Below are positions 1,237 through 19,791 of a stretch of 20,000 bases of DNA, one piece after another. The notes beneath the pieces are model-generated. The model made no database searches. It was given only the letters and a program-made list of their open reading frames with translations, and was not told the DNA's origin. The position numbers and the translations under genes are program-made. The DNA comes from Chromera velia. Taxonomy: Eukaryota. Positions within the stretch are counted from its first letter, which is position 1. Every line of letters begins with the position of its first letter. The stretch is taken from the NCBI GenBank assembly GCA_018398765.1, contig JAHBMJ010000355.1, positions 110,368 to 130,367 of the forward strand. Reading direction: 5' to 3'.

Positions 1237-1256
1237 GTCACTCTCTAGGTCACTCT
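1237..1256. repeat. 8-bp direct repeat flanking CTAG (putative transposon excision footprint)
   Basis: GTCACTCT-CTAG-GTCACTCT. Confidence 0.75.
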
Positions 1257-1691
1257 TAGTTACTCTCAATATCTATTTGTAGCGATCGAGCAAGAATGAA
1301 ATATTAAATGCTAGATTATAAATGCTGTAAAATTTTAAATTTCATCATCGTGTTCATTCTATTTTAAAATATTTGCCTAGTTGTCAGAGGAAGAGATTGA
1401 CTTGCCTGAGATGGTTCAAGAATTCGAAAGAGAGAAAGAAAAGGTTTTGATGGGACTGAGTTGAATGATTTTCATGCTTCCGGAACCTTGTAATGATTGC
1501 GCTGATTTGCATACGCTGATGCTGGGGTCCTTTCCATTCTTTCCTTTTTGCGTTCTGCCCAGGGATGAACAGAGTTAAGGGGGGGAATGGTTGTTGGGAA
1601 CAATCTTGGGAACCAGAAAGACTTCATACGCGCACGCCGAGCGATAAAGAAAGTGCAAGGCGATGTCAGGCAGTAAGCACCGCGCGCGCAT

Positions 1692-2322
1692 CTAGGGTTG
1701 GGCACTAAAGTTTTTTTTATAATATAGTTTGCCTGAAAAACTTTAAACTTTAACTTTAAAACTTTAAAATAAACATGCAACTATTTATATGTGATAAGTG
1801 ATTTAGCCATGCCCTTAAGCACTGTCGCCGTTTTATAACTTTTGTCTCATGCAGTATAGAGGTCGCCCCCGCAAATGGTAAGTGGATCTAGAAGACGTTG
1901 CGAGAGAATTTGATTTCATTTATATCGTTATATATCGTTACGGGTAGTTGCGAGCAAAGTTCCGCTGAGTCCACCGTCATTTTCCCCTTGCTCTGCTTCT
2001 AACTCTAACTAATTTATAACTTTTCCGCTAACTTTTCCGTCGCCGATGATTATTTCTGATGTGCATGAACATAAATTTAAACCTGAATAGCTAGCTGAAT
2101 AGACTAAGCTCCTAGAGTCCTAGTTAAGCTCTAGGACTGAACTTTTGTTACCTTCTTAGTATATAAGCTAGTTGATATGACTTAAAATTGATTTAATTAT
2201 GACTGACTTAATTAAAGATTTATTAAAAAACTAATTGAAAAATTTTTTTTTAAAATAAAGTCTGGAGGGCAAAAAAAAACTTTAACAAAAAAAAACTTTA
2301 AAACTTTAGTGTCCAACCCTAG
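1692..2322. mobile_element. 631-bp non-autonomous TIR element (MITE) with CTAG termini and an 8-bp TSD
   Basis: TIR CTAGGGTTGG(G/A)CACTAAAGTTTT at 1692-1714 and inverted at 2300-2322, 22/23 identical. Flanks GCGCGCAT (1684-1691) and GTGCGCAT (2323-2330), 7/8. AT-rich interior with subterminal AAACTTT repeats and no coding capacity. Confidence 0.85.
2083..2102. repeat. 8-bp direct repeat flanking CTAG (putative footprint), nested inside the MITE
   Basis: CTGAATAG-CTAG-CTGAATAG. Confidence 0.7.
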
Positions 2323-2701
2323 GTGCGCATACAGAGTGCTCATGCAGTTTGCAATGCATGCATGAATACATTATACATGGAAAAAGAAATACCACAGAAG
2401 TGAGTTCACATAAAACGGAATGACAGAGAGACAGAACAGACATCAGAAAGAGGGACACAAAAAGATACAGAGGTGACATGTATTTAAGTGGACCAATACA
2501 AACGAATACGGTAGTACATGCACGACACGTGCACACATGCAGTCTGACTGACCGATCGTATCTGTTCTGAGTAGCCAACCTGGAATCTCTCTAGAAGGAG
2601 TCGAAAGATGAACGACCAGACGAACAGACCGTTGCGTAGATACACGTAAGTAGAAGTCGTAGCCCTATACGCTAGCCCTCCGTATGCTCAACAATCTTTA
2701 A

Positions 2702-2721
2702 AAGTTTTCCTAGAAGTTTTC
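2702..2721. repeat. 8-bp direct repeat flanking CTAG (putative footprint)
   Basis: AAGTTTTC-CTAG-AAGTTTTC. Confidence 0.7.
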
Positions 2722-2963
2722 TAAAAAAATAAGTTTTACGCTTTCACTGCCTTTCAGCAGCTTTCTTACGCAGCTATCAAACTTGAAGTCACGCTGAATT
2801 TCTCACTTCTAAAAAAGCTATAAAACTAGTGACTTTAAAATTGATTAGTTATTTGACAAATTTAATTGACAGTTCATGAGATTTGAGTATCACCAGACTC
2901 CATGTCAAATGGTCTACATGTACAAAGGAACAGAGCACTTTGAGTTTTTCCAGTATGTCTATT

Positions 2964-5009
2964 TCAGAACCCGTGTGCCCCGAAGAGCTGAGTCAAGTAG
3001 AAAGACCCGTCAGGTGACTGTGATATTCCAATCCCACACACAGAGAACTTCCCCCGCAGGTTTCGTTCGTGCCCTGGCGATTTGATCCATCCATCGACCG
3101 CCATCTTGGCGACCTGAAACACCCCCTTGTTCATCGCAACGTTCTCTGCTGACTGGACCGATCGGAAGGGGTAAGCCTTAAACCGCTCATTTGCACCATC
3201 ATGCCCGAAAGGCACACGCCCAGCAGCCATGTTTTGGGAATGGCCCTGTGCGATTCGACACAGGGCGTCTGACCAAATGAGAGCGTTCAACCCTAGTTTC
3301 CGTCGGTATTCGTTCGTAAAATCCAAGGCCTGTTTGCCAATGTAGACGGGGTCAAGTTCCTGATTTCGGATTTCTGCCAGAGACTTGGGGGCATTCCACC
3401 TCCGTCTCTCGTCCTCTGCGTACTTTCCGGGGCCGTCTCCTTCTTTCCCCCTCGACTCCCGTCTCTGCCGGTCCCCCCCTTCCAGTGTTCCCAAGAAACG
3501 TTTCGTCTCCTCGGCTGTCATGCCACGCAAGCTGAACGTCTGCTGCTGCTGTCGAGAGGCGCTGCCGGGGCGAGAACCGGAAGAAGAAGAAGCAGAAGGA
3601 AAAGACGGGACTAGTCCCCCACCCCCTCCCCCACCGGAGACGGCCGCATGCCGCTGTTGCGCCATCAGCCGGGCCGCCAAAAGTTGCGACTGCGCGTCTT
3701 GTCGGGCTGTGTCGCCCTTAGTCCTTCGCTGAAACTCAAACGCACCTCCACCCCCTCCACGCCCCTGCCGCCCTCCCCCCTGCTGACGCTGGTTCACCTC
3801 CCCACCCGCAGCTGCTGATCCCTGCGCGGGGGGCAGGGGACTCCTGCTTCTTCCTGCCCCCCTCCCTGCTCCTCCGGCTGCCCTCGTTCTCGATTCGTGA
3901 ATCTCTGCAAGGAATCTCCGCTGGGAGATGCCACTTACGCCTGCTGCTGCTCCTCCAGCTGCTGCTGCTGCTGCTTTTGAAGTTTGTTGCTGGTTCTGTC
4001 GCTGTTTTGCTGGGGGCAGCTGGGCAGTGCCAGGCTTTTTGTTTGCTGCCTGTTCGGCAGGGGGGATGGCTGAGGGGTCTATCTCAACGATGAGGTCCTC
4101 AAGGAGACCTAGAGCAACTGCGAGGGTGTCAATGAGGGCAGCCTGGGAAGGAGACAACTCGGATAGAATCGGAGGGGGGGCGGGAGCCTCAGGGGATGAA
4201 AGGGGGAGGCACATCTGGAGGGGGTCTTCTGGGGATTCGATAAAGCCACTGGCTTTCATGAAGTCCTTTGCTGCTGGGAAAGCACCGATGGTTTGTGAGA
4301 TTTTTGGATTGGTGAGTTTGAAGGAATGAAATTTGGTTTCGAGTGGTTTCTCCGTCACGTTGTTCAAAAGAGTTCTCATAATCTTCATCGTCTGCAGTCG
4401 TTTCTCTGAAACATTCAGAGGCGTGATGGTCGGGTTGGGGGGGTGAGAACCATCGGGAGGGGAAGGAGAAAAGGGGAAGGGACTGGGCTCCATGAGAAAG
4501 AGAGGCTCCAAGGCACTCACAATTCTCTCCAACGACTCTTCGGACACAGTCGAAGAAGATGGAACATTTTCTCTCCCCTCCTCGTCTTCCCTTCCTTCTT
4601 CATCGTCTTCATCTAGAGTGAGGTCGATGAGCGGAGGCTGATCAGAAACCTCTGCGGGGGGGGGAGAAAGATCACCACCTGCCTCCCCTCGCTGTTCGTT
4701 TCCCTCACCCCCACCCTGAGCAGGAAAGGAGCACTCCCCCCTGGCTGCTTTTTCCAGAACAAAATTGACAACAAACTGACGGGAGGGCAAAATGTCTCCA
4801 TTTGCCCGCACAGCTTCATAGATGCATGTGCGAAGAGAGGCCACTTCTTCTGAAGGGAACACCTCCATCAACTCCCTCAAGAGAGCTTCTGCAGATTCCG
4901 CTCCCTGTCCTTCTCCCTCACCGTCTCCAACCAGCAACTGGCGCCCCAGCTCCCTCTCTCCATCCGCATCCCGGTACCCTCCCGCCTCCCCTCCTGCCAT
5001 CTGTCCCAT
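2964..5009 (-). CDS. Intronless 681-aa protein: N-terminal CUE-like ubiquitin-binding motif, SIM-like motif, PUB (p97/VCP-binding) domain, long G/Q/A-rich linker, C-terminal CAP/SCP (YkwD-like) domain
   Basis: Uninterrupted ORF with an in-frame TGA 7 codons upstream of the ATG. PUB-like segment aa ~203-268 (KIMRTLLNNVTEKPLETKFHSFKLTNPKISQTIGAFPAAKDFMKASGFIE). CAP signature in the last ~120 aa (TNEYRRKLGLNAL, AQGHSQNM, FGHDG, AENVA, VDGWIKSPGHERNL, GIGI, YLTQLF). CUE-like LRELMEVFPS...NGD...FVLE at aa ~40-87. LIDLT plus acidic run at aa 127-144. Domains recognised by eye. Confidence 0.9.
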   Translation of the reverse strand: MGQMAGGEAGGYRDADGERELGRQLLVGDGEGEGQGAESAEALLRELMEVFPSEEVASLRTCIYEAVRANGDILPSRQFVVNFVLEKAARGECSFPAQGGGEGNEQRGEAGGDLSPPPAEVSDQPPLIDLTLDEDDEEGREDEEGRENVPSSSTVSEESLERIVSALEPLFLMEPSPFPFSPSPPDGSHPPNPTITPLNVSEKRLQTMKIMRTLLNNVTEKPLETKFHSFKLTNPKISQTIGAFPAAKDFMKASGFIESPEDPLQMCLPLSSPEAPAPPPILSELSPSQAALIDTLAVALGLLEDLIVEIDPSAIPPAEQAANKKPGTAQLPPAKQRQNQQQTSKAAAAAAGGAAAGVSGISQRRFLAEIHESRTRAAGGAGRGAGRSRSPLPPAQGSAAAGGEVNQRQQGGGRQGRGGGGGAFEFQRRTKGDTARQDAQSQLLAARLMAQQRHAAVSGGGGGGGLVPSFPSASSSSGSRPGSASRQQQQTFSLRGMTAEETKRFLGTLEGGDRQRRESRGKEGDGPGKYAEDERRRWNAPKSLAEIRNQELDPVYIGKQALDFTNEYRRKLGLNALIWSDALCRIAQGHSQNMAAGRVPFGHDGANERFKAYPFRSVQSAENVAMNKGVFQVAKMAVDGWIKSPGHERNLRGKFSVCGIGISQSPDGSFYLTQLFGAHGF

Positions 5010-5890
5010 CGTCCAGATCAGAGGGAATCAATCTGGTTCACTCTCTACGGACGCAGTTGGAACTCGAATTGATTTGATTGATTCAGAACCCAAATTCTTG
5101 CCGTCTCCGGAGGGCTTTCAAGGGACTCTCTCGCAAGCTTGATATTGTGCCGAGCTTTGATATTTTGCCTTTACAGGTTCAAGCGAGATCACAGGAGCTC
5201 CTTCCTACTGACAGCAACTTGCAACTTCTTCTCTTAATACGTAGCTCCCCTGAAGTTTCTGCGTTTGCTTTTGACAAGATCTGCGAAGTCATCAAAAAGG
5301 ATACCTCCGTAAATTTTTGTGGTGACTCTGCCGGCGTCCTGCCGGTGGCCCCGGAAAGCTCCGCCGCACATGTTGGAAGCCGCTTTGAAGGGCCACGCGC
5401 ATGCATATGCAGGAATTTATGAGCAACGCTGAAGTTTACTATAGTTTATACTCAGAGTGTCTGACCGATGTCTGACCGTCATCATGCAGATCGTAATAGA
5501 TCGTATCAATTGAGCTAGGCTGCACGACTGCACACAAGAAGATCCCTGCATGAGCAGTACATACAGCCCAGTTGAGATTGTGCCAAGAGTTTAAGTTGCT
5601 TTTGAACTTTCCCATCAAACCGTTCTGATCGATCGCACTCTGGATCGACTCTCATCATGAACTCCGGTCGTCTCTCTTTCCTCCAGCTTCAGTCTGCCTT
5701 CCTAGATCAGGCAGGCGCTCTACGATAGAGCTAGTCCGTCCGTGGAGGCGCCCTCCCGCTCACTTTTTGTTTGCGACGTGAGCAAAACATAAAGCAAAGC
5801 ACGATAGACTAGGGTGTGAAAAAGTTTTTCGTTCCAAAACGCAACCGAAGGAACGCATCAAGAACTAAGGCAAGGAGGAGCTAGGCGAAC
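5010..5890. promoter_or_regulatory. Shared upstream region (probable bidirectional promoter plus 5' UTRs) of the divergent gene pair
   Basis: 881 bp between opposite-facing start codons. Contains GCATGCATATGCA at 5399-5411. No transcription start can be located from sequence alone. Confidence 0.55.
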
Positions 5891-6025
5891 ATGGGGAATG
5901 AGGAACCGCTATCGCCTGCGCAGGCAGAGCCCACTCAGGCCGACCTCTCTCCTGTCGCACCCACCGCCAATGGGGGACCGCAACCGCCCCAGGCCTCCCA
6001 GACGAAGGAGCTGCAAAGAGTCAAG
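5891..6025 (+). CDS. MFS transporter exon 1 (MGNEEPLSP...ELQRVK)
   Basis: ATG at 5891, 45 codons, donor AAG|GTGAGT, in phase with exon 2. Confidence 0.8.
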
Positions 6026-8085
6026 GTGAGTGCGTCTCGAGTAGCAAGCAAGTAATCCCTCTGGATACAAATCTTCCCCCCGCCTGTCTCCTCTTGCGCC
6101 CCCTTTTTCCGAGCCCCTTTGCCTGGCCCCTGCTCTGTGCATGCATGTGCCCCCTTTGCGCTACGCACGCACGCAGGTGGGCCATCCAAGGGAGGACGTG
6201 GGGTACACGAAGTGGGTGTTCGCGTCCTTCGTCGTGATCTCCACTCTGGTACAGTTTGACTCGGGCATCGTCCCCTCCTCCCTCATTGAGATCCAGGGGG
6301 TCCGTCAGCTTGCTTGCTCACTGTCATTCCTCCTTTCGCTTGTGTCTGCACAGGAAAAGGGAGTATGAGGCATTGCCGTGCTCTTCTTCGGAAGAGAAGA
6401 AGGGAAGGAAGGAAGGAAAGATCGCGGCTCTCCCGACTGCCAGGTTGAGGCTGAGGTTCGACGGAAAGGAGGAAGGAGAGGGGTCCCGGTGGAGGGCGCG
6501 CGCGCGCGCGCGCGCGCGCGCGCGCGCGTGTGTGTGTGTGTCTGTGTCAACAATGTCCGCGTGCCCCCCTCACCAGCTGGATTTGCACAGCAGATGGATG
6601 GGTGGATGCATGCATGGCCATGTGTGGCTGCCTGCTTGTGTCTATGTGTATGCATGTATGCATGTGGGTGTGTTTGTATGGCTTCCTGCAGCAATTTGGA
6701 ATGAATGCCTCGGAGGCAGGGCTCCTCGGGGCCCTCCCCTATATCGGGGTCGTGGTTGCGAGCGTGCCGGTCTCCCGTCTCCTCCAAAAGAACGGGTGGC
6801 AGCAGACGGTACTCTTCTGGGGCCTGTTGTTGAATCAGGGATCCCTCGCGCTCCTAGCACTCGCTTGGGAGAGAGGGCTCCTCTACACGTCCCGTATTTT
6901 GATCGGCATGACTCAAGTCAGTGCATGCATGGCCCTCTCCCTCTCTGTCTCTGTCTCTCTCTCTCTCGTTGAGTGTTCTGCTTTTTGCAATCGTCGTGAT
7001 CACTATGAGGGATTCCCATCTTCTGAAGGGGGGGAGGGTTCCTGTGTTGTTCTTCATTGCCTCCGGCTGGCTTGCTGCAAATTAGGTCCGCTGCTCCTCT
7101 CTTCCGGTTGTCTCTTGACTGACAAGGATCGAGGGCTTCCCTCCCTCCCGGCCATCTCCCTCCGCCCTGTCATTTCATTTCCTCCACTCCCCTCTGTTGC
7201 TTCTCTGTCTCAATCAAGCATCTCTCTCTTTCTCTCTCTCTCACACACACACACACTTTCTGTCTGTCTGTTTGTCTCTCCCCTGCCCACTTTGTCAGAG
7301 TTTTCGTGATGTTCTTTTATCTCTGTTGCTTTCTTTCTGTTTGTCTGTTGTGTTGATGAAGAAGAGGAGGGAAAAAGAAACCATATAGTCTGTCTGTCTG
7401 TCTGTCTGTCTGTGTGTGTGTGTGTACACGATGGATGGATGGGGGCATGATGGATGGATGGATGGAATGATGCATGCAGACGGTGGTTGCGGTGTACGGC
7501 CCTGTGTGGGTGGACGAATTCGCTCCTCTGGAAAGCGCCACTTTGTGGATGGCCCTGATCCAAGCTGCCAATGTGCTCGGCGTGACTGTCAGTCATCTTT
7601 CTTTGTCAATCAATGAATGAATGGATGGATGAATGAATGAATGGATGGATGAATGAATGGATGGATGAATGAATGAGTGAATGGATGGATGAATGAATGA
7701 ATGAATGGATGGATGAATGAATGAATGGATGGAGGGGTTTCGTTGAATCAACCAGCCTGCTTTGTGTGAGAATCAGAAAAAGCTCCCGTGCTCTCTTTTG
7801 TAGTTTTGCTTCTTCTTCGCAGCGCTCTGGATTTAATTTCATGAAGTGTTTTTTTCTGCTTCTCTCCTCTTGCCGATGCTGCTTCTCCTTTTTTTTCGGC
7901 ATAGCTGTTGAGGGAAGGTGTGTGTGGGGGCGGGGGTGGAAGCAGTCGGAAGCAAGGAAGGGACAGAGGCAGGGGGCAAATTGTGGCAAAGAGAGTGACA
8001 TGTGGACATGGCGGGCGGTGAGACAAAGCAAAGCTACAAAAAGCGGATGAGAAACGACAAAATTCAAAGACGAAACGTCGCCCTA

Positions 8086-8123
<38 letters not shown>

Positions 8124-8676
8124 TTCTTGTGTGCAGTTTGGGTATGCAATTGCTGGAGGATTCATTTCGGCAGGTGGGCCATCATTTTTTCCTTTTGTGT
8201 CGATTTGCTTGGATGATGCGCTTTCTTTTTTCTCTTTCCTGTGCTGTCCTGTCCTTTATCCAACAACCGTCAGATTGTGTGTGTATGAGAAGTTAGTTCG
8301 TCGTTTGTTTGTACGTGGAGGGTCTAAAGAAAGAAAGAAAGAACCCTGCTGCCCTGTGCACAGTCCCTTTCTTCCTTCTTTCCTTCCTTCCTTCCTCTCA
8401 GGTCTCCCTTGGCAATTCGCCGTGTGGCTTCAACTTATCCTTCAGGGCCCTGTCACACTCTGCACAGGTCTCCTGGTCTCCTGGAGAAAGTCAGTCAGTC
8501 AGTCAGTGTATGCATTCATTCTGATGAAAATAAATGGATGCACAGGTGTCCTCGTCTCCTGGAGAAAGTCAGTCAGTCAGTCGGCAGTTAGTCGGGGGAC
8601 GCTCTCTTTGCAGCCGATCTCGGTGGCAGCTGGGAGGGCAGGTTGGCTCGATCGTTTGTTGGTCTGTAGAAGGAGG

Positions 8677-8718
<42 letters not shown>

Positions 8719-9251
8719 GTGGTTCTGGTTCTGTGTATTAATGAATGAATGAATTTTTGTTTGTTTGTGTGTTTCTGGCGGGTCGTCAGGGAAGAAGAAC
8801 GCAGAAAGGGACCTCGGATTGCACGCACATGTTTTTGTTCTTCCGTTCTAGCTATCTGTCTGACGGCTGGCTCTATTGCTTTGCCGAATCTCGAAGACGC
8901 ACTCACGCGCGCGGTTAACCATTCATCTGTACATTGACTAGTTTGTTCCAGGACAGCAGGTCCCGCGCAGTATGCGACCCATTCAATGAATACACGCAAA
9001 GGTGCACGAATGAATTCGATCTATCGAGATATCGACCTGTCTGCACGAACGATCGATGTCCCTGTGAAGACTGCAAGGCATTTCTTTCTTTCCTTCCAGT
9101 TTTGAAGCAGCAGCGCGCAGATGGATGGAACGCGTGTCTACTTGCTCCTCAGCTTTTTCTTTTCTTGTGCGTCTACGTCCTCTCCCCCTCTCTTTTCCTC
9201 TCCCTCTGTCTCCTGCCCACCCCCCTTCTCTCTGTGTGTGTGAACGAACAC

Positions 9252-9291
<40 letters not shown>

Positions 9292-9336
9292 GTACATCAA
9301 CCTCCCGGATCCGGAGGAGCTGAAGGTTGGTAGGGC

Positions 9337-9376
<40 letters not shown>

Positions 9377-10927
9377 TTTTCCTTTCCTCATTTATCGCTC
9401 ATCAAGCGCAGAAAGATAGATAACGTCTGCTGTCCTCTATGCGCGCGTCCGTCAATAAAGCTTTCTCTCTCTGCTTTAATTGTACCTCGAACAAACATGT
9501 CGATATGTCTTCTTGACGCTTCCTCTTTTGATGCGATTTCTGATGGGTCGTCACAGTGAGATGGGCGGGCACTCCCTTCCTTCCTTCCTTCCTTCGTTCC
9601 GTCCGTTTGGAGGGAGGGAGGGAGGGAGGGAGGGAGAGAAATGGAAAAGAAAAGAGCGGAAAGCACGAACAGGAGAGGGGGGTGAGGCAATCCTGTGAGA
9701 GCGAAGAGAAAAGAAGCAAACGATCGAATGTAGCACGGAAGAAAAAATCGATGGTTAGTGACTCGTCGAAGAAATACACGCACAGTTTTTCTCTTCCCTC
9801 TCTGTCGCTGCTGCTATTTCAAAGAAATGATGTCATTGACGCGTTTTCTTTCTTTCATTTGCCATGTCGTATGCATGCTGTGCTCGCTCTGCAGAAGGCG
9901 ATGTTGGCCCTCCAGAGGGAGCAGATGAAAAGGGGGACGATACAGCGGGCTATCGGGACGGGACGGTGAGTCGTCGATCGACGCACGCAACAGCTAGACA
10001 CGACAGAAGAGGATGGGAGAGGACTGAGAGACTGACAAAAAGAAAGAAAGACGTCCTGGAAAAGAGAAAAAACTCGGTCTACTGAGAGGGGAAAAACACA
10101 TTTCCCTCCTGGTCTTTTCAAATTTCATTGCTTTCCCGTCTGCCTGGTCCCTGTGTTTTGGCTCGCCCTCCTTCTGTCTGTCAGTCAGTCAGTCTGTCTG
10201 TCTGTCTGTTTGCGTTCTTTTGACTTAATCATTCATGAACTCTCTCTCTCTCTCTCTCTGCGCGCTTCGTCGAGAGGCCCCACTCCCTCCCGCCTGCCTG
10301 CCTGCAGGTACGGGGACCAGAGCGCTGCCCTCCTTGCCGAGGGGGACCCTTCAAGGGAACAGAGCGGGAGCGCCGAGGGAGACGGAGACGGAAGCGAATA
10401 CCCCCCTTCCCAGCAGATGAAGCAACACCAGTCGGACCCCCTTCCCGTCACGTCTCGGGACGGCCTCTCGACCGCGCCTCAGAGCGCCCAACTGAACGGA
10501 AACGTGAACATGGTGAACGGTCAACCGAGCAAGGGTGCGAGGAAGAGCATGTTTCCCGCAGTCGGAGCAGCAGAACACGAAGGCCTGACGTCCTCTACAG
10601 AGAGGGAGGGGGTGCTTGAGGGAGACGCTGGAGGGTTGAGCCAGCCAATGCAGGCTCCTCGTCTGACTGCGGCAGTGTTGAGTCTTCTCCAGAAGGATTT
10701 GGGGGCATCGGGACAGGAGGAAGAGGAAGAGGAAGGGAAGGACGAGGGGGGAGAAGAGGAGGGAGAGGGAAACGGAGGGAAAGCAAATGGACAGCAGCGA
10801 GCCGCCAGCAGTCCTCATCGACCGCGCTTGGAGAACGGCTTGGAGACCAATGGAGGTAGGTACCTGCGTGGAGAGATAGGTGTATGTGCCCTTCCTTCCC
10901 TCCCCCCTCCCTTCCTTTCTAAAGGCA

Positions 10928-10981
<54 letters not shown>

Positions 10982-11802
10982 GGTTGTTTCCATTCCACGT
11001 TTCCTTTCTGTCTCTCTTCTCCATTTATTTCTTTTCTGGCTGCACGTTGGGAAGTGATGAGATTTTCATATTCCGCCTTCTCATACGGCGTCTTGTCGGA
11101 ATTCTTCCCTGCCTGCCTGTCCGTCCGTCGGTGTGTCGGTCTCTTCTTTCGTCCGGCGATGTTTTTGGTTGATTTCGTGAACTTTTGACAATCCCCGTCT
11201 TTCTGTGCAAAAGTAAATACATATTAGGATCAAAGAAAACGGAAAAGAAACGAAAAAAGAACCACAGGCACATCAAATTCCTCCTCGTGTTCTCCCCTGA
11301 ACGTGTAAAGAAAAAGGAGTCAAAGGAAATTAAGGAATAAGGAGCAAGGATAAAAAAATCGACGCAGATGAATGTGTGAGCGACACTCTTCTAGCTCAGC
11401 GTCGTTTGCTGATTTCGTCCACAAACAAAAAGCAGTCGTCATTCATTTATCGCATGTATTCATCGTATGCATCCATGCATGCAGACGGAGGCAACGGCGC
11501 AGGTCTAGAGGAGGACGGGTTTGGGTTGGAAGGCCCGGACCTGCGCGCTGCCTCTCAGATCAGCGTGCGGCCTTCTGACGGTGGGACTTACGAGACAGAG
11601 AGGCTGATGGACATCGCAGACGAGAGCGACACACCAGAGGAAGAACACGAGAACGTCTGGAAGAGACTGCTCAAACCTACCTGTGCGTCCTCATCCTCAA
11701 GATTTGTTTCTTTCTTTCTTGATTGATCGATTGAGTGATTGATGGACATTTTTCATTCATGTACCTTCTATTCTGGATTGATTGTAGTCTTGGATCACCC
11801 AT

Positions 11803-11851
<49 letters not shown>

Positions 11852-14800
11852 AGTGTGTGTGTGTCTGGATACACACCGAAAGGGAAGAAGACCTGACCTC
11901 TAGGTCGAACGAACAGGTACCTTCCTTCCTTCCATCAGCCGACTTTCGAGTACGCCGAGCGAAGACTTAATTGTGCGATTTTCAGCGGTAGATTGAGAGA
12001 GAACGAAATTGGCAGAAGACAGGCCGACTGCGAGAGAGGGACGCGTGCAGGAAGAAAATGCAGTCAAGCAGTCTCGGTGGCAATCGAACAGAAGCGGCGC
12101 AATTGGCAGAGGATCCCATCTAGCTGTGCATCCGCTTCTGCTGTGCCGCCTGAATGTTCTCTTCTCTGTCTCTTTCTCTCTCTCTCTGTGACTGTGTGTG
12201 TGTGTGTGTGTGTGTGTGTCCGTCTGTCTGTCCCATTGCTTGCTTACTTCATTTTGTTCTTGCGTATGTGTGTGTCTGTGTCTGGGCCCCCGGGGGGCCC
12301 TGCTGCAGCCAACATGGTTCTTGCGGGTCCGAACGCGGGCGTGACGGCGTCTCTGAATCCGCTGATCGAGGACGAGAGGGAAGGTCTGAGAGTCCATCAA
12401 CAGGGGGGGGCGTGGAATCGGATGAGGTCGTCTAGCATGGACAAGGAGGACCCTGGGGGGGAGTTTGGAAGGGGGATCACGGGGGTGGCTCTCGGGGTGT
12501 TCGGAGGTCAGCGGTCGGGGATCCACTCCCCTTCTGGCAGCCCTGCGAGGGCAGGCGGCGGTCTGAGGGCCTCAACAGAGGCGGGGGGTATGGCAGCCAT
12601 CCAGGAAGAGGGCGACAGCCCTAACGGAGAGGGGGCGTGGCAACGAGAATCACATCTTCATAGGGACATTTCAGCAACACCGGTCCCTCGGGCAGGTCGG
12701 TGTTTGTGAGAGTGATGAGGTTGTTTCTTGTACATTGTGATTCTTTTCTTTTGCTTATCCGTGTCTTTCTGTGTCTGTCTACGCATATGCATGTGCTCGT
12801 GATTGGAACACTCATTGATGTTTTGCCGTTGTTTTCAGGTTCGCTTCTCCTTTTCTTCATTGCTTCCTTTCTTCCTCTCTCTCTTGTTCTCTCTCGCTCA
12901 CTCTCTCTCTCGCTCGCTCGCTCGTTCTGTGTGTGCGTGTACGTCTGTGTAGAGTCCGCTCGATGCCTCTCTCGTCCCACCCCTCTGCCTCCCTCGCTCT
13001 TTTCTACTGATTGCAGAGTTACCCCTCAACTTTCCTCGAGGACAGTCCCCCCCGCCCTCAGGAAAGATTTCCGTTCTCACTCCCATCAGAAGAGGACCTC
13101 AGCCGACCTCAGCTTCCAGTCCCTTCGGCAGGGCGAACTCTCGAAAGGAGAAAGAGAAACAAGACAGAGAGGTGTCCTCTCACGGAGTCAGCCCCAGTTC
13201 CCAGAGGAACACAACAACGGGAGTCCCCCCAAGACCCCCACGAGCAGTGACCTCCTCCGAGACGCCTCAGGTGATTGGGAAACCCTCAGCGTTGGGAGAG
13301 GGGGGACAGCAGGGGTGCCACTTGAGTGCAAATTTGGACCAGCTTCCTTTGCCCCAAGTCATCTCAGGGGAGTCCAACGGTCGGCAGAGAAAAGAGAAAG
13401 GAGAGGGAAGGGACAGAGAGAAGGAAGCTCTGTCTGACGATCTGGAGGCTGGGGGTGGGGGTGAGGGGACAACGTGGCGGGATCCGGAGGCGCCTGTGGG
13501 GGGAAGGAGAGATGACGGGATGTCCAACCACAGAGAATACTCCCTGGGGGGGGGGCCTGGGGCAGATGGGTCCTTTCATCTGTACGGAAAGCATCAGGTG
13601 GGTGGGTGGGTGGTCGAACTGTTGTGTTTCGTTGACCAACAAACATTCTGTTTTTCTTTCTTTCTTTCGAGTTGCTGCTGTGTCTGACCAGTGAGTGCCA
13701 GGGTCTCCCTGAGACGAACGAATTGACGGACTGCCTCTTTGTCTGTTTGTCTGAGTGCGTGCCTGCCTGCCTGCCCATTGGCTTGCTTGCAGAGAACGAG
13801 CGACCCAAACTTTCCCTACAAAGGACGAAGACAGTCCTCCGTCCTGTCTGCACTAGGAATGGAGATGCCGACACCCGGACAGGGGGGGCAAGGGGGGCCC
13901 GATGAAGTGCAGCCGACCTCCGCTTGGGCCGTTTTTTATGATAATCTCAAGAGCGTCGTTACGTCAGTCAGCCTCCTTCTCTCTCTTTTTCTTTCTTTCT
14001 CATACACACACGCACTGGATCTTTTCCCTCAAGCAGCGAAAGCGACGGGCGGACTGCGAGACAAAAAGACGAACAAATAAAGAGACAGAAAGAAAGGCAG
14101 CAGACAGACGGTAGGCAAGAGACAGAAAGGCGCATGCGGGGAGGGACAGATTGCATGGGTTCTCCCTCGTTCCTTCCAACCGCCTCGCCTGCTTTTCTTC
14201 TTTCTTTCTTTCTTGCGCCACCTCCAACTTTCATTTCCGACAAACAGGAAGATCCGGACAAATTCGCGAAGAGAATATTTCGGGTGTTCTCGCGTTATCT
14301 TCTTTCTCTATTTGTTTCTTTTTTTTGCTTTCTTTCTTTATTCACGTTTTCCTTTTCTTTCTTTCTTTCTTTCTTTCTTTGTTTGTGTTTTGTGCGTATG
14401 TGCAGCAACTGGATTTTCCTGTCGCTTGTGTTTGGCCTTTGTGCCCTCTTCTTCGTGCTGACGGGAATCCAGTTTTGGTCCACAAAGTATTTCGTTGAAG
14501 AATTTAATGTCAGTCAGTCGTCAGGCTAAGGCTCTCCTCGAAGCAATAAAGCTCACTTCTCTGAGAATATTATGGTATTCTTGGAGAGAGGGGGATTGAA
14601 AATGTAGAGAGAGGGAAGAGAAATGACAACCTTTCTGACTGTCAAGTCTTTGTTCCCTTCCCAAAATTATGGAAGGAACTGTTTTCGCTCCTTCATTGAC
14701 CCCCGGGGGGTTTTCGGCTTCTCTGCTCTTTCCCCCTCTCCGCCTCTTTCCCTGCTTTCTCCCTGCATCTGAATAGAAAGAACCAAGCGGATTTCCCACA

Positions 14801-15488
14801 CAAAACAAACAAACAAACAAACGAAAAGAAAACCAATCAATCGACAGGTGGGAGGAGCCCTGACTGTCTGTTTTTGAATCATGCAAGAAACGCTCTGTCC
14901 GGCCCGCTAGCCAACATTCTAGACAGACTGAGGATCCCCTTCGTGCTTCACGGCACCGTTATCCACCGGGCTGCTTATCTTCTTCTTCTCCTCCAATTTC
15001 ATCACTCCCCTCACCCCTTCCCTCTTCCTCAATCTGTCTGCACGAGGAAAACGAGCACCGTCAGGGGGGCCCACTGCATGACAGCACATTTAGTTAGGTG
15101 ATGACATGTTATTATGCATTGATGAGCTAATTGCAGCAAGCGCAAGCGACGATCACGATTGCGTTCTCCATCACGGCCGTGTCTGCCCCCGTCATCGGCG
15201 TTATCGGGGGGGGCATCTTGGTGGACTGCGCGGGGGGGTATAAGGGAGCGGCGTCGACCATCAGGGCCCAGTACATCACTTGCGCGTTCGGGGCCTGCGC
15301 CACTGCGGCGGGGGCAGTGGCCTCGATCTCGCAATCGTTTCCTCTCTCCATCGCCATGGTCTGTCCGTCAGTGACTTGGTTCAATTCTTTCACTGTCCCC
15401 CCCCTTCCTGTTTCTGGTCTCTTCTTCTTTCTTTCCTGTCACAGTCAGCGCCTCGATCCCTCAGTCAGATGATCTTTCTATCTATCTA

Positions 15489-15523
<35 letters not shown>

Positions 15524-16990
15524 GTGTGTGTGTGTGTGTGTAAACGTGTGTGTGTGTGCAGGTATGGTTGGTCCTTTGTTTTGGTGGAGGCGTCGTGCCG
15601 GCAGCGTTTGGAATCATCGTGACGACTGTGGAAATTGAGTTGCGACCTTTTGCCACAGGAACGGGAATGCTTCTGTATAATCTTTTGGGATTCTCTTTAG
15701 GTTCGTTGGTTGGTCGGTTGGTCAGTCAGCTAGATGGATGGATGGATGACTTTCTAGAATCCTTCCTTCCTTCCTTGCTTGCTTCCTTCATGCAGTTAGT
15801 TGATAGTAAATGTTGTCTCTTAATTAATTGCAGCACCTGGCCCAGTAATCCTCCCCGTCTCTTCAGGCTCGTCTCCCTCTCTCTCTCTCTCTCTCTCTTG
15901 TTCTCTTCTTTGGTTGGGTCGTTATTGTTTCTTCTTGTGCGCATCTTTGCGCAGCTCTAGTCTTCTTCTTCCTTCCTTTCCAGCAGTGGTCAGATTGGGG
16001 AGAACGCTCTGGTGGGGTACTCACAAAATGATTTGGATTTTGTTTCTTGTGATGTTCCTTTCCGCCAATGCGTGTGAAGAGTTTGGTGGGATAGACGGAG
16101 AGGGAGAATGAAGTTATGCGACTCCATTTTCATCTCGATGGCAGAATTGTATTGTCTTCCGTTCTCGGTCGTGCCTCCCCCCTCCCGTACACGTGTGTGT
16201 GTGTATGTGTGTGCGTGTGTGTGCGTGTGTGTGTGTGTGTGTAAACGTGTGTGCAGGAACTTTTCTGCCGGGTGTCGTGATTAGCTCGGTGAATTTGAGG
16301 TGGGGCATGGTTGTTATTTTTCTGTGGTCCTTTTTCGGTTTGTTCTTCATGGGTCTCGCTGCGTTTCTCGGGACGATTAAGTACAGAGCGCTGCTCGCCC
16401 AGCAGAAGTTGGACGAGGAGGCGATTCGGAGGGGCTTGCTGGAGGAAGAGGAAGAGAGGAAGGGGAAGAGGGGGGTCGGGAAGGCCAGTAAGAGAGGGAA
16501 GAAGAAGACGGTGGGCAGCGGTTTTCATCCTTTCACAGGAGAACAGCTGGAGGAAATCGGCTTGACGGGCCCGTCTGTGCGGGATGTGAAGAGAATTCGG
16601 AAGCAGACCCTTGTGCAAGTCGATGGGGATGGGGGAGAGAGTACCGTCCGCAGACGGCACTCCTCGATGGGCCCATCTGCCCGAAGTTCCTCCCATCCAA
16701 GGCCTCAACAACAGATGTTGGAATCGCCGGTGAAACAGAAACCCGGAAGGCCTCTGCAGCCTGTGAGTCCCCTCTGCGGAGTGGCAGATTTGCCAAACAG
16801 CCAGAGTACGGGAGGTCACGATGCGGCTGTGAGTGTAGAGAAAGACGTTGCAGACGAAAAGGAGAAGAAGGGAGGAAGGACGCCCATGAGGTCGCTCGAG
16901 TTCGGGGGAGGGGGTGCTGCAGGGCGTCTGTCTGCGACCGCAGCGCCGGATCCGGCCAGGCTGCTTGACTCAAAGCAGCAGCAAAAGTAA
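5891..16990 (+). CDS. 17-exon major facilitator superfamily transporter (Spinster/SPNS-like, alveolate type), about 1300 aa, 6+6 TM helices separated by a very large loop
   Basis: Manually spliced exons, all GT-AG and phase-consistent, total 3903 nt: 5891-6025, 6177-6299, 6692-6916, 7480-7587, 8137-8173, 8402-8489, 9292-9325, 9895-9965, 10308-10855, 11485-11682, 12309-12695, 13017-13597, 13793-13962, 14406-14508, 15137-15358, 15562-15700, 16257-16990. Motifs: VQFDSGIVP (TM1), SRILIGMTQ (TM4), YGPVWVDEFAP, FFVLTGIQFW (TM7), APVIGVIGGGILVD, YNLLGFSLG. Confidence 0.88.
6177..6299 (+). CDS. MFS transporter exon 2 (TM1)
   Basis: ACGCAG| acceptor; VGHPREDVGYTKWVFASFVVISTLVQFDSGIVPSSLIEIQG; |GTCCGT donor. 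Confidence 0.87.
6497..6540. repeat. Compound microsatellite (CG)16(TG)6 in intron 2
   Basis: Direct reading: perfect CG repeat 6497-6528 followed by TG repeat to 6540. Confidence 0.95.
6692..6916 (+). CDS. MFS transporter exon 3 (TM2-TM4)
   Basis: CTGCAG| acceptor; QFGMNASEAGLLGALPYIG...SRILIGMTQ; |GTCAGT donor. Confidence 0.9.
7480..7587 (+). CDS. MFS transporter exon 4 (end of TM4 to TM5); this frame is not in the ORF track
   Basis: ATGCAG| acceptor; TVVAVYGPVWVDEFAPLESATLWMALIQAANVLGVT; |GTCAGT donor. Confidence 0.9.
7613..7731. repeat. Mixed (GAAT)/(GGAT) tetranucleotide microsatellite in intron 4
   Basis: About 120 bp of interleaved GAAT and GGAT units. Confidence 0.95.
8137..8173 (+). 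CDS. MFS transporter exon 5 (37-nt exon)
   Basis: GTGCAG| acceptor; FGYAIAGGFISA completes TM5; G|GTGGGC phase-1 donor. Confidence 0.85.
8402..8489 (+). CDS. MFS transporter exon 6 (TM6)
   Basis: TCTCAG| acceptor; GLPWQFAVWLQLILQGPVTLCTGLLVSWRK; AA|GTCAGT phase-2 donor. A duplicated alternative donor lies at 8568. Confidence 0.8.
8461..8582 (+). repeat. Duplication with 78-nt period spanning the exon 6/intron 6 boundary
   Basis: TGCACAGGT(C/G)TCCT(G/C)GTCTCCTGGAGAAAGTCAGTCAGTCAGTC starts at 8461 and again at 8539. Confidence 0.9.
9292..9325 (+). CDS. MFS transporter exon 7 (34-nt exon, YINLPDPEELK)
   Basis: (TG)n-CAG| acceptor, phase matches exon 6, AAG|GTTGGT donor. Confidence 0.78.
9895..9965 (+). 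CDS. MFS transporter exon 8 (KAMLALQREQMKRGTIQRAIGTGR)
   Basis: CTGCAG| acceptor and CG|GTGAGT phase-2 donor; needed to join exon 7 to exon 9 in frame. Confidence 0.78.
10308..10855 (+). CDS. MFS transporter exon 9 (central disordered loop)
   Basis: CTGCAG| acceptor, open frame YGDQSAALL...GLETNG, G|GTAGGT donor. An alternative phase-1 donor at 10880 is possible. Confidence 0.78.
11485..11682 (+). CDS. MFS transporter exon 10 (central loop)
   Basis: ATGCAG| acceptor; DGGNGAGLEEDG...WKRLLKPT; T|GTGCGT phase-1 donor. Confidence 0.78.
12309..12695 (+). CDS. MFS transporter exon 11 (central loop)
   Basis: CTGCAG| acceptor; NMVLAGPNAG...ATPVPRA; G|GTCGGT phase-1 donor. Confidence 0.75.
13017..13597 (+). 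CDS. MFS transporter exon 12 (central loop)
   Basis: CTGA branch-like motif then TTGCAG| acceptor; frame ELPLNFPRGQ... continues into track ORF 13172 up to ...LYGKHQ; CAG|GTGGGT donor. Confidence 0.78.
13793..13962 (+). CDS. MFS transporter exon 13 (end of loop)
   Basis: TTGCAG| acceptor; RTSDPNFP...FYDNLKSVVT; AC|GTCAGT phase-2 donor. Confidence 0.82.
14406..14508 (+). CDS. MFS transporter exon 14 (TM7)
   Basis: GTGCAG| acceptor; NWIFLSLVFGLCALFFVLTGIQFWSTKYFVEEFN; |GTCAGT donor. Confidence 0.9.
15137..15358 (+). CDS. MFS transporter exon 15 (TM8-TM9)
   Basis: GCTAAT branch-like motif then TGCAG| acceptor; QAQATITIAFSITAVSAPVIGVIGGGILVDCAGGYKG...LSIAM; |GTCTGT donor. Confidence 0.88.
15562..15700 (+). 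CDS. MFS transporter exon 16 (TM10-TM11)
   Basis: GTGCAG| acceptor; VWLVLCFGGGVVPAAFGII...LYNLLGFSL; G|GTTCGT phase-1 donor. Confidence 0.9.
16257..16990 (+). CDS. MFS transporter exon 17 (TM12 and long hydrophilic C-terminal tail)
   Basis: GTGCAG| acceptor; GTFLPGVVI...WSFFGLFFMGLAAFLG, then open to TAA at 16988-16990. Confidence 0.88.
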
Positions 16991-17364
16991 AGGAGGGGAA
17001 AAAGGGGCACATGCAGGACGAGAGCGGGGAAGGAATGAGGGCGAAGAGAAAGAAAGAAGGTGAGGGATCAGACGTTGGAGAGGAGAGAGGGAAGTGCAGA
17101 CCCATTCCGCCCAAGGAATTCCGTTCCTCTTTCCCTAGCTCTCTGTCTACCTGAGTGCAAACGTCCCTACTCCAAAGAATCAAACGAGTAGACAGTATGC
17201 ATGCGGGACTCCACTTGTGCACATCGGGCCCGGCCCATGGGGCAGGTGTGTGCTGCTGGTGGACACCCGCCCGGAATCGTCGTCAAAAATCACTGTAAGC
17301 AAATGATTGATTGCATGCACGCATCCATACAGAATTCAAGAAAAAACAATTAAGTCACGTCAAT

Positions 17365-17384
17365 CAGCCGTTCTAGCAGCCGTT
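17365..17384. repeat. 8-bp direct repeat flanking CTAG (putative footprint)
   Basis: CAGCCGTT-CTAG-CAGCCGTT. Confidence 0.75.
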
Positions 17385-17840
17385 TGATGAAGTGTGTTAG
17401 TTCGTCTGTCGACCGGTTGGCGTGTGCATGCAGGCTTTTGAAGGAGCGATGCCCTTGTGCCTTAGTCTTTGTGCATGGCAGCCCATTGCAACAAACTTCT
17501 CAGTGCCAGAGTCAATTCGATCATTCATATATCGGTTCATGTATGTAAAATGAAGTCCTAGATACAGTCTTTAGTACGGTCTATAATAGTCTACAGTGAC
17601 TCTACACTAGAGTCTACAATTGGCTTCATAATTAGCTAGGCATTAGATCTACTATGAGATTAGGGCTTTTCCCTATAGTAAGCATATCACATTAATTGTA
17701 GATCAGCCTCTCAACTCTATCAACTCGGCGGATAGACTGGACTGTCATACAGTCACCGTATTGCATGTCTGCTTACTTCAACTGAGTTTAGCGTTTAATT
17801 TCAAGAGTTCAATCCTAAACTATAGATCCTAAAAAAATAT

Positions 17841-17860
17841 GTCCTTCGCTAGGTCCTTCG
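17841..17860. repeat. 8-bp direct repeat flanking CTAG (putative footprint)
   Basis: GTCCTTCG-CTAG-GTCCTTCG. Confidence 0.75.
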
Positions 17861-17897
17861 CTTTGGCATGACGCCCCGCCACTTTCTTTATTCGATC

Positions 17898-18191
17898 CTA
17901 GTGTGATCTGTAAAGTTTTAAAATGAAATAAAGTTTAAAGTGTGGTTTAAGTCTATGGACTGTAAAATATAACTTTTGAAATGCATTTTAAATTTTTTTA
18001 TACATACATTGAAACTATATTGAAAAATGTTTTAAAAGGCTAAACATTTAACAATCCTAAACAACACATCAATATGTTCAAACTTTTTATTCTTAATAAT
18101 TCTTAAAGTTTTAAAACCAAGAAAGTTTTAAAGTCTAAAGTCTGTGGTCAGACTTTATTATAGTAAAAATAACTTTACAGATCACATCTAA
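17898..18191. mobile_element. About 290-bp MITE-like element with a perfect 16-bp inverted repeat
   Basis: TGTGATCTGTAAAGTT at 17902-17917 and its reverse complement AACTTTACAGATCACA at 18171-18186. Left end preceded by CTAG, right end followed by TCTAA. AAAGTTT/AAACTTT-rich interior. TSD not recognisable. Confidence 0.65.
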
Positions 18192-18197
18192 AAATGT

Positions 18198-18217
18198 TAT
18201 ATATTCTAGTATATATT
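18198..18217. repeat. 8-bp direct repeat flanking CTAG (putative footprint)
   Basis: TATATATT-CTAG-TATATATT. Confidence 0.65.
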
Positions 18218-18542
18218 CAAACAATTAAATAATTGAATTAATGCAATTATATGTAAGACTAGGTATAAGAAATTAGGTATAAGAAACCTAACTCAGTGAC
18301 TGACAGTGAAAAAAAACTTTAGGAAAAATTAAATAATAAATATATATAGTAAAAAATGTAGGTCTAGATGCAGGTACCATATGATATTATTTGAAAGCAT
18401 GCCAAGTTGGATGACTTAAATCCTATACCTCTGCCTAGACCCCTGCTGAGGGCCTGCTTTACTTTGCTTCCTACTTCAGGTTTTCCGACTATCCCTAACT
18501 CACGCTAACTGCATGTATATGTCTATAACATTCTATTATTAA

Positions 18543-18806
18543 GGGGCCATGTAAAAATCTATTTGAGTATTAGTGGTACGCAAACGGGCTTAGGTCGGAG
18601 CGGAGGGGGTCTTTGCATGCTAGCAAAGCAAAAATGACCATTCTTCTCGACTATTAAAACATATTTTTACTAGCATTGTTAAGTTAAAAAAACTGGGTTT
18701 TCATTTTTTTTAGGGGGGGTGTGCCGGTGCGTGCTGCTGTAGTCGAAAGTAGGGGAAGGGGGGTCTTCCATGCCACTGACACTCAAATGAATTTCCATAT
18801 GGCTCC
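18543..18806. mobile_element. Degenerate ~265-bp TIR element at a TTAA-like site (Kolobok-like by termini)
   Basis: 18539-18580 aligns without gaps to the reverse complement of 18769-18810 at 31/42, and 10 of the 11 mismatches are transitions. GG...CC termini flanked by TTAA and TAAA. Confidence 0.55.
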
Positions 18807-19791
18807 TAAAGTTAGACCTAAACACACCACTTAAAATCTTAAATTCTCAATTGTACAGTGTTAATTCTACTGTTCAAAAATCATTTTTTGAAAATCTGTG
18901 TCGCAAGCCGCTGCGTGTATGGGGTAAGTTTTGAATTTTTAATAATGTTGCATGTAAAAATGGTGTAAGTCTTCAAAGTTCTAAATTTTAAATCTAAAAT
19001 CTTCAAAAGCAATACTATGCATAGCTATAGATACGGCGTAGATTTCGAAAAACCTAGTAAAAAACCGTGCCAGAAACCGTATATATTGATGCGGCAAACG
19101 TAAGTGCGGCGCATAACGGAACCTAGAACCGAACAAAAACTTACCTAGAAACCTCAGGCTACAAGTTTATAAAAATTTAAAGCAGTAGTTTAAAAGAATT
19201 TAACATAATTCAACGTGAAAACAGAAACTAGAGGTCAACCACGGATTTAAAGAAATTTATTAGGGAAATTAAAAAAGTTTAAAACAAAAATCTAACTATA
19301 CAGATTTTAATTTGAAGAAGGAATTTAGCATTGCATAAAAATTAGTAGTAATTTAGAGAACGTCAACTTACATGTACGTACATACCTGCTTTGTATTTTA
19401 ACAATCGGTTTCACAAAGGACACTACCTTCTGATATAAGAAGACACCCGCTCGTAGTTTTCTGAAGAAAAATGGTTGAGAAATAAAGGAGATCTGGTCAT
19501 CCAATTATCTCTGCCGTCTCCGTCTGTTTCTCTTCCAAGCATCACTCTGCTGGGCCGGTTCCTGTGTCCGCTTGCCACTCTCTTTGCTCCCGGAAGGAGC
19601 GCGGGGGCGCGGAAGCGTGGACACCGGTGGGGGGAGCGAAAGGACCCGCCGAACCCAGCGACGTGAGCAACCGATACGCGGCCACGCAGGGCTGAACGAT
19701 ACGCATCACTCAGATTGAGCATAGAATTCCTCGTTGCTGCTTTTATCTCTATTGAACAAACCCATCGAGACTCGGCAAGGGAGCAGCACCC

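Follow-up and report, generated by a model that had tools for sequence, protein, structure and literature searches.

Introduction

The closest described counterpart of the locus reported here is the Drosophila P element, which makes an 8-bp target-site duplication (TSD) and is cut with 17-nt tails (PMC7776569), and which, by our own count of the entries in Table 1 of PMC2895639, left TSD-CATG-TSD at 5 of 66 donor junctions. Close to it stands Introner family 4 of Aureococcus sp., which is small, has inverted repeats and duplicates 8 bp; when it is removed, by the description given, 4 element bases and 8 duplicated bases stay behind (PMC9860276). Its row in supplementary table 6 of that paper marks the TSD with a question mark. 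Here we describe a window, by which we mean the whole stretch of 20,000 nucleotides analysed, from Chromera velia (contig JAHBMJ010000355.1, positions 110,368 to 130,367 of the forward strand), in which an 8-base sequence, the letters CTAG and the same 8 bases recur many times outside the genes. The window also holds members of two CTAG-ended families of MITEs (miniature inverted-repeat transposable elements), called MITE A and MITE B below. We consider it fairly probable that the motifs are excision footprints of CTAG-ended cut-and-paste transposons, the gap having been sealed by pairing of CTAG tails. They are likely to form a real and well-supported field of excision scars from these MITE families, for which no superfamily can be assigned.

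CA..TG is the end consensus of the wider P superfamily, whose transposase is of the THAP/GTP-binding RNase H type, and YA..TR that of hAT elements, of which short subterminal repeats are typical; Novosib elements make an 8-bp duplication, piggyBac seals its donor site seamlessly through a palindromic 4-base sticky end, and the 3' end of Helitrons is CTAG. The elements described here share the 8-bp duplication with the P superfamily and lack its CA..TG ends, both families having CT..AG. As the P element is portrayed in the accounts cited above, the two systems agree in that both copies of the 8-bp duplication stay whole, with bases of the element ends between them, and in a palindromic terminal 4-mer, a product of +12 bases and a 3'-terminal G; they differ in their ends and in the length of the inverted repeat, which is 31 bp in P and about 23 bp here. 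The scar may thus resemble that of P in its working, an analogy that does not establish membership. Introner family 4 is matched in a further respect, in that the ends of family B would be expected to form the same kind of GT-AG intron; according to the description available, however, the introner gains its 12 bases by splicing in genes, whereas here they lie in DNA and outside coding sequence.

The remaining systems fit less completely. The locus shares the 8-bp duplication with hAT and shows neither YA..TR ends nor footprints made of flank deletions and palindromes. What is reported of hAT and MULE elements (duplications of 8 bp and 8-10 bp, respectively) is excision through flank hairpins that ends in deletions with flank-derived palindromes or in precise repair, with no constant element-derived 4-mer in those accounts (PMC5499845, PMC5873905). 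Tc1/mariner elements likewise leave a short piece of their ends between intact duplications, but they are described with a TA duplication, absent here, and 2-base non-complementary overhangs in place of 8 bases and a self-complementary end (PMC4490562). Merlin/IS1595 elements share the 8-bp duplication but have GG..CC termini (PMC8101967), which are not found here, and Zisupton/KDZ elements share it as well, the Kyakuja examples given having CA..TG ends and 7-bp duplications (PMC12730594); the portions of these two papers that we drew on give no excision footprint for either group. With piggyBac, whose seamless excision is the subject of PMC7351741, the 4-mer belongs to the target site and no bases stay behind, whereas the 4-mer here comes from the end of the element itself and 12 bases remain. 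Two further identities were rejected: a Helitron makes no duplication and is without such inverted ends, and if MITE A is read as TAG..CTA (hAT- or Academ-like), the direct repeat (1684-1692, 2322-2330) no longer abuts the element.

A preliminary description of this DNA had called the scar unprecedented. That is true only in part: a TSD, a palindromic 4-mer and a second TSD are on record for P (Table 1 of PMC2895639, as counted above), and the sum 8+4=12 is printed for the Aureococcus introner (PMC9860276). What is new is that the CT..AG ends fall outside every 8-bp-TSD superfamily checked, and that the scar is so uniform. A literature search, which did not extend to Repbase, where the families may be catalogued, found no description of CTAG-ended elements with 8-bp duplications or of a TSD-CTAG-TSD scar; in the candidate precedent PMC3698922 the CTAG is, by the account given there, a target site.

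Results

The window consists of two genes with microsatellite-rich introns and an AT-rich intergenic block on each side. Fourteen motifs, six perfect and eight imperfect, had been listed in the preliminary description, and all of them read at their coordinates as described there. The perfect ones lie at 1237-1256 (GTCACTCT-CTAG-GTCACTCT), 2083-2102 (inside MITE A), 2702-2721 (directly right of a solo long terminal repeat, LTR), 17365-17384, 17841-17860 and 18198-18217 (adjoining the right end of MITE B). Among the 33 intergenic CTAG sites, 6 are flanked by a perfect 8-base repeat, 10 by a match of at least 7/8 and 20 by a match of at least 5/8, whereas none of the 24 sites in the genic span exceeds 4/8. 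With one low-complexity genic site left out (itself at 4/8 or less), the difference is significant by Fisher's test both for matches of at least 7/8 (10/33 against 0/23, p=0.003) and for those of at least 5/8 (20/33 against 0/23, p=1.5e-6).

The repeat is specific in length and in spacer. When low-complexity matches are removed and 4-base spacers are considered, CTAG gives a count of six at a repeat length of 8 and zero at every other length from 4 to 13, and no other 4-base spacer exceeds one at length 8; the peak that had been predicted for this pattern is thus seen, within the window, at one length and with one spacer. Matches at lag 12 around the intergenic CTAG sites number 17 to 22 of 33 at offsets -8 to -1 and drop to 4/33 at offset -9 and 5/33 at offset 0, so that the repeat is exactly 8 bases long. 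When spacers of 0 to 45 bases are compared, a spacer of 4 (lag 12) stands highest with 19 runs, 8 of them perfect, followed by 10 runs with 4 perfect. As had been claimed, the number of perfect motifs is far beyond chance: 2,000 local order-2 Markov resamples gave none in 1,995 cases and a maximum of one in the other five. The duplicated 8-mers at 17 sites are unrelated sequences, and a consensus built from these sites shows no strong base preference.

The perfect motifs are not an artefact of assembly, since all six are carried unchanged, with 0 differences, on contigs from public runs. Two of these runs, X1 and X2, are DNA runs from two studies, one of which may be the window's own source; X3, X5 and X7 are RNA by guess only, and X9, with a small share, was left out of the evidence. 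The motif at 1237 is carried on X1 and X2 contigs covering 900-1409, that at 2083 on an X1 contig (1989-2274), that at 2702 on an X1 contig (2633-3300), that at 17841 on X1 and X2 contigs (16900-17930) and that at 18198 on an X2 contig (18133-18708). The motif at 17365 is found on X1, X2 and X7 contigs and also on an X5 contig of about 1% divergence. Besides the DNA runs of both studies, two others carry motifs as well. The X5 contig (16900-17529) differs from the window by seven letters and one 3-base gap (at 16990) over 630 bases, and of its six listed substitutions none falls inside the motif, which makes this scar probably older than the split of those sequences. Contigs of two guessed-RNA runs that carry it extend about 530 bases beyond the stop codon of the neighbouring gene, a transporter of the MFS type, and the motif therefore probably lies in its 3' untranslated region. 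The claim that all motifs are intergenic and none exonic accordingly holds for the genic-span sites, none of the 24 exceeding 4/8, but probably not for this one.

MITE A (1692-2322, 631 bp) has 23-bp inverted repeats ending in CTAG, matching at 15 of 16 positions inside the CTAG ends, and subterminal arrays of AAAGTT/AACTTT. Its flanks read GCGCGCAT/GTGCGCAT, and the target duplication (1684-1691 and 2323-2330) matches at 7/8; the intact CTAG-ended element with an 8-bp TSD that had been proposed here is thus found, and it is the only pair among 59 CTAG sites with both a duplication and an inverted match. It sits in a host repeat on the plus strand (1374-2693), likely a solo LTR, which would be 681 bp long without the MITE and has TG..CA ends and the flanks ATATT/ATCTT; sequencing depth is high from 1372 to 2694, with loose contig ends at both borders. 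Joints in sister copies of this repeat, seen in X1 and X2, skip 639 bases, that is 631+8 (1685 to 2325, 1688 to 2328), and the sister copies therefore lack MITE A together with exactly one 8-mer. MITE A accordingly is a MITE, having inverted repeats, a target duplication confirmed by empty sites, many copies and no coding capacity.

MITE B (17898-18191, 294 bp) is a degenerate copy of the second CTAG-ended family, with 16-nt perfect arms. The loose ends of 22 contigs before 17901 (X1 and X2) have a consensus that ends in CTAG, and those behind 18190 start with G; from such ends, sister copies of family B start CTAG|GT(G/A)TGA and end CTAG. Family A starts CTAG|GG. As a MITE it shows inverted repeats, high summed depth and no coding remnant, and a target duplication is unrecognised at the window copy. 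At the ends of MITE A and MITE B the summed contig depth reaches roughly 100-fold that of single-copy sequence or higher, a measure of depth rather than of copy number, and both are high-copy families. The multi-copy CTAG-ended elements that had been predicted therefore exist, the 8-bp duplication being seen for A. Both carry TAAAGTT at positions 15-21, repeated further inward, and otherwise share little beyond CTAG(G); the similarity suggests that one enzyme served both families.

Sister copies reveal the scar as something added. In those of MITE A, position 2090 is linked to 2127 through four letters, against 36 in the window, and the net 32 bases at 2083-2131 are the sum of +12 for the perfect scar at 2083-2102, where the sisters have one 8-mer and no CTAG, and +20 for a longer scar at 2104-2131, which they lack. 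In a second joint (2060 to 2130, in X1 and X2) the first 8-mer is likewise present once. Judged by these sequence comparisons, the scar is shown at two sites to be an addition to an older single 8-mer. The original interpretation, that the motifs are insertions of +12 linked to elements with CTAG ends and an 8-bp duplication, is borne out to this extent, the empty sister copies showing both the insertion step and the scar step. The gain preserves frame by length, as had been stated, but the CTAG holds a TAG stop in one of its three phases.

The long scar at 2104-2131, newly recognised, consists of an 8-mer, CTAG-AGTC-CTAG and the 8-mer again (7/8), and reflects either retention of both terminal CTAGs or two nested events. 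A variant at 17812-17833, also new, has perfect 8-mers (8/8) around CTATAG, which is either the first three and last three bases of the element or a CTAG into which TA was inserted later. Scars matching at 7/8 lie at 17599-17618, 18356-18375 (previously missed), 18427-18446 and 19115-19134. Pairs of overlapping older scars are seen at 17550-17582 (6/8 around CTAG and 7/8 around TTAG) and at 19046-19081 (6/8 around CTAG and 7/8 around CCAG), and at 18251-18284 an older 6/8 scar, of uncertain reading, is followed by a 14-base tandem repeat. A scar with the spacer CTAA and an 8/8 repeat lies inside MITE A (2020-2039), and the right copy carries a 3-base insertion at 909-931 (overlooked before) and a 2-base insertion at 1303-1324. 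Scars thus grade from 8/8 down to 6/8, with aged, mismatched copies present, and only 2 of about 20 have another spacer length. As a correction to the earlier account, three motifs lie within MITE A itself. Within the LTR, an 8-mer is perfectly repeated around AATC (1594-1613), and sister contigs show a related 47-base back-jump (1661 to 1615); this is probably a repeat internal to the LTR rather than a CTAG scar.

Together the roughly 20 scars add about 250 of 5,112 intergenic bases (5%), whereas elements still present make up about 37%, a figure in which the borders of a third element, described below, were taken five bases too wide. The suggestion that much of the intergenic DNA grew by insertion and excision was in this respect overstated. 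The scars cluster outside the genic span even though its introns and promoter total several kilobases, and a number of them are found next to or within older elements. Their placement could reflect target preference, local hopping (as is described for P elements; PMC7776569) or selection against inserts in transcribed DNA.

Other features of the window are summarised here. Inside MITE A, the segment 1784-1834 has very high depth in X3, and in the DNA runs it is bordered by many loose ends on either side; it has no Rfam match and may be a separate repeated or transcribed unit. An X9 loose end behind 2694, at the border of the solo LTR, continues into a stretch containing TGGT, which we take to resemble a tRNA primer-binding site. 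A third multi-copy MITE (18543-18806), unrelated to the CTAG families, has GGGGCC-type ends with TAA on both sides, presumably a likeness to PIF/Harbinger elements. The minus-strand gene (2964-5027) is a single long reading frame for a protein with PUB and CAP domains and long low-complexity linkers; a dinoflagellate, ciliates and a slime mould are among its named relatives, and the domain pair is present in other protists too. In the plus-strand gene, from about 5891 to 16990, one exon matches MFS_1 (E=9e-6, below the curated cut-off); the gene appears to encode an MFS-type transporter with a very long disordered middle loop and has many microsatellite-filled introns, several of which start with GTCAGT. 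Summed depth in the DNA runs is high at 16900-17070 and 19423-19500, which places the end of the last MFS exon and the edge of the right block in further repeat or paralogue families. Microsatellites are abundant across the window. Searches against Rfam and for tRNAs gave no matches.

Discussion

The sequence of events that we favour begins with abundant non-autonomous CTAG-ended inverted-repeat elements, one of which demonstrably inserted with an 8-bp target duplication, and with the addition, at two sites, of a scar to an older single 8-mer. A putative DDE transposase common to A and B would have cut the non-transferred strand four or more bases in from each end, and each flank would then keep a 3' tail starting with CTAG. 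The tails would anneal at the self-complementary CTAG, the flaps would be trimmed, and ligation would give TSD-CTAG-TSD. Repeated landing in the same AT-rich intergenic patches, older MITEs included, may have built the clusters, and the spread of matches from 8/8 to 6/8 suggests that this took a long time. No 4-base word other than CTAG pairs with itself within the first 17 bases of end A, and even long tails would therefore seal there. The spacer is identical to the first four bases of the element, as annealing requires; a join of two bases from each end would be reasoned to give this coincidence in only about 1 of 16 cases. The 12-base spacer at 2104-2131, in which a full CTAG from both sides is kept, points to tails of four or more bases, as a single example. 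On a long, P-like (17-nt) staggered cut the window offers this one 12-nt spacer, which may but need not reflect it. In family B a further palindrome, GATC, occupies positions 9-12, and for this family long tails would predict a 20-base palindromic scar; none is present in the window, whose small size makes this weak evidence.

Several observations weigh against this reading. No transposase or remnant of one was recognised, the 12 frames searched (six each of MITE A and the right intergenic block) giving no credible Pfam match. The end A pattern was absent from metagenome contigs and prokaryote genomes, and the end B pattern from metagenome contigs and viral contigs. At the window copy of MITE B the 8-bp duplication is not recognisable. 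The empty states come from paralogous sister copies compared at 80% likeness and not from alleles, their main joints carry the flag 'between: not known', and in the contigs of the public runs empty, filled and scar states were not seen together at one locus. The four-base product is the main visible class here but a minority in flies, at 5 of the 66 P junctions tabulated; moreover, clean excisions that restore one 8-mer leave no trace, so that 'dominant outcome' applies among visible scars only. The CTATAG spacer at 17812, again a single example, points instead to a 3-base stagger. Two isolated matches were set aside in these searches: a weak FokI-domain match (E=0.04 across the 12 frames) was not accepted as a transposase remnant, and a match to end A in one viral contig was put down to chance, being a lone stretch of 19 bases with no inverted partner seen and no scars at the contig's 29 CTAG sites.

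Letters identical to those of the 4-nt stagger first proposed would result from a stagger of 2-3 nt, from long tails or from gap repair by the host. The same elements could have been cut only 2-3 bases inside their ends, in the manner of Tc1/mariner, TSD-CTAG-TSD then arising by fill-in of CT and AG or by CTA tails paired at TA. The perfect CTATAG variant (17812-17833) reads as three bases from each end, and Tc1 is described as leaving 2-base non-complementary 3' overhangs (PMC4490562). Such a 2+2 join, however, needs no palindromic element start, yet both families have one; the scar at 2104-2131 retains at least 4 bases from both ends; and Tc1/mariner duplicates TA, not 8 bases (PMC10045372). 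We regard the shorter stagger as unlikely, if still worth keeping in view.

Equally doubtful, to our mind, is a scar made by the host, either through hairpin-forming excision (of the hAT kind, for example) followed by gap repair in which a few bases of each end are copied from the sister chromatid and anneal at CTAG, or through replication slippage across an element hairpin between the terminal CTAGs. End A without its first C reads TAGGG, which we assume resembles hAT ends, and the fold of MITE B as single-stranded DNA is strong (z=-5.9). The 8-bp duplication suits hAT (as reported in PMC5499845), as do the short subterminal repeats, and hAT elements are among those annotated in a chromerid genome (supplement 11 of PMC4501334). 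Against this, the hAT footprints recorded in PMC5873905 are deletions and flank-derived palindromes, whereas in the scars here both 8-mers are intact. Slippage or gap repair would also be expected to favour the 8-base repeat as the longer one and to leave remnants in a ladder of increasing length, yet nearly all of the scars agree in spacer length.

Splicing enters the argument through family B, whose sister copies carry both splice signals at their ends. A speculative and rather improbable extension is that of an unclassified CTAG-ended lineage with 8-bp duplications and two exits giving the same 12 bases, namely self-sealing DNA ends left by its enzyme and, for family B copies in genes, GT-AG splicing in either orientation; if true, such a lineage would generate introns and insert patches of four residues into proteins. 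Much less credible still is the idea that the scars are themselves reverse-transcribed splice products, a family B element having been spliced as a GT-AG intron and the resulting TSD-CTAG-TSD RNA copied back into DNA. The CTAG|GT(G/A)TGA starts and CTAG ends would allow it, and the Aureococcus introner is reported to add its 4+8=12 bases to mRNA (PMC9860276). The scars, however, shun the genic span (0/24 sites) and are found instead within MITEs and in intergenic DNA rich in AT, no CTAG|GT...CTAG intron occurs within the window, and with its CTAG|GG start family A would not yield +12 by splicing. There remain chance, a simple tandem duplication and an artefact of library or assembly at CTAG sites, for which one might cite the AT-rich regions, the many microsatellites and the possibility that one of the two best DNA runs is the window's source. 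Their probability is negligible, and they are already refuted by the resamples, the contigs of several runs, the mismatched aged copies and the empty sister copies, in which the CTAG is missing along with one 8-mer; a tandem duplication of 12 bases by itself would not leave such copies.

If the motifs are excision footprints sealed through CTAG tails, they offer a record that is readable in the genome even where the elements have left. Each scar holds its target twice, so that one regular expression could count past transpositions, date them by their mismatches and map target preference. The published chromerid annotation, in the supplement cited (PMC4501334, supplement 11), lists 6.3 Mb of class 2 DNA as non-autonomous and unassigned, and the motif would provide a sequence handle on unclassified elements such as these, if they are of the right lineage. 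Should the cognate enzyme leave complementary ends, the locus would represent a second self-sealing excision chemistry beside that of piggyBac, and it would show how an unplaced family with an 8-bp duplication cuts its ends.

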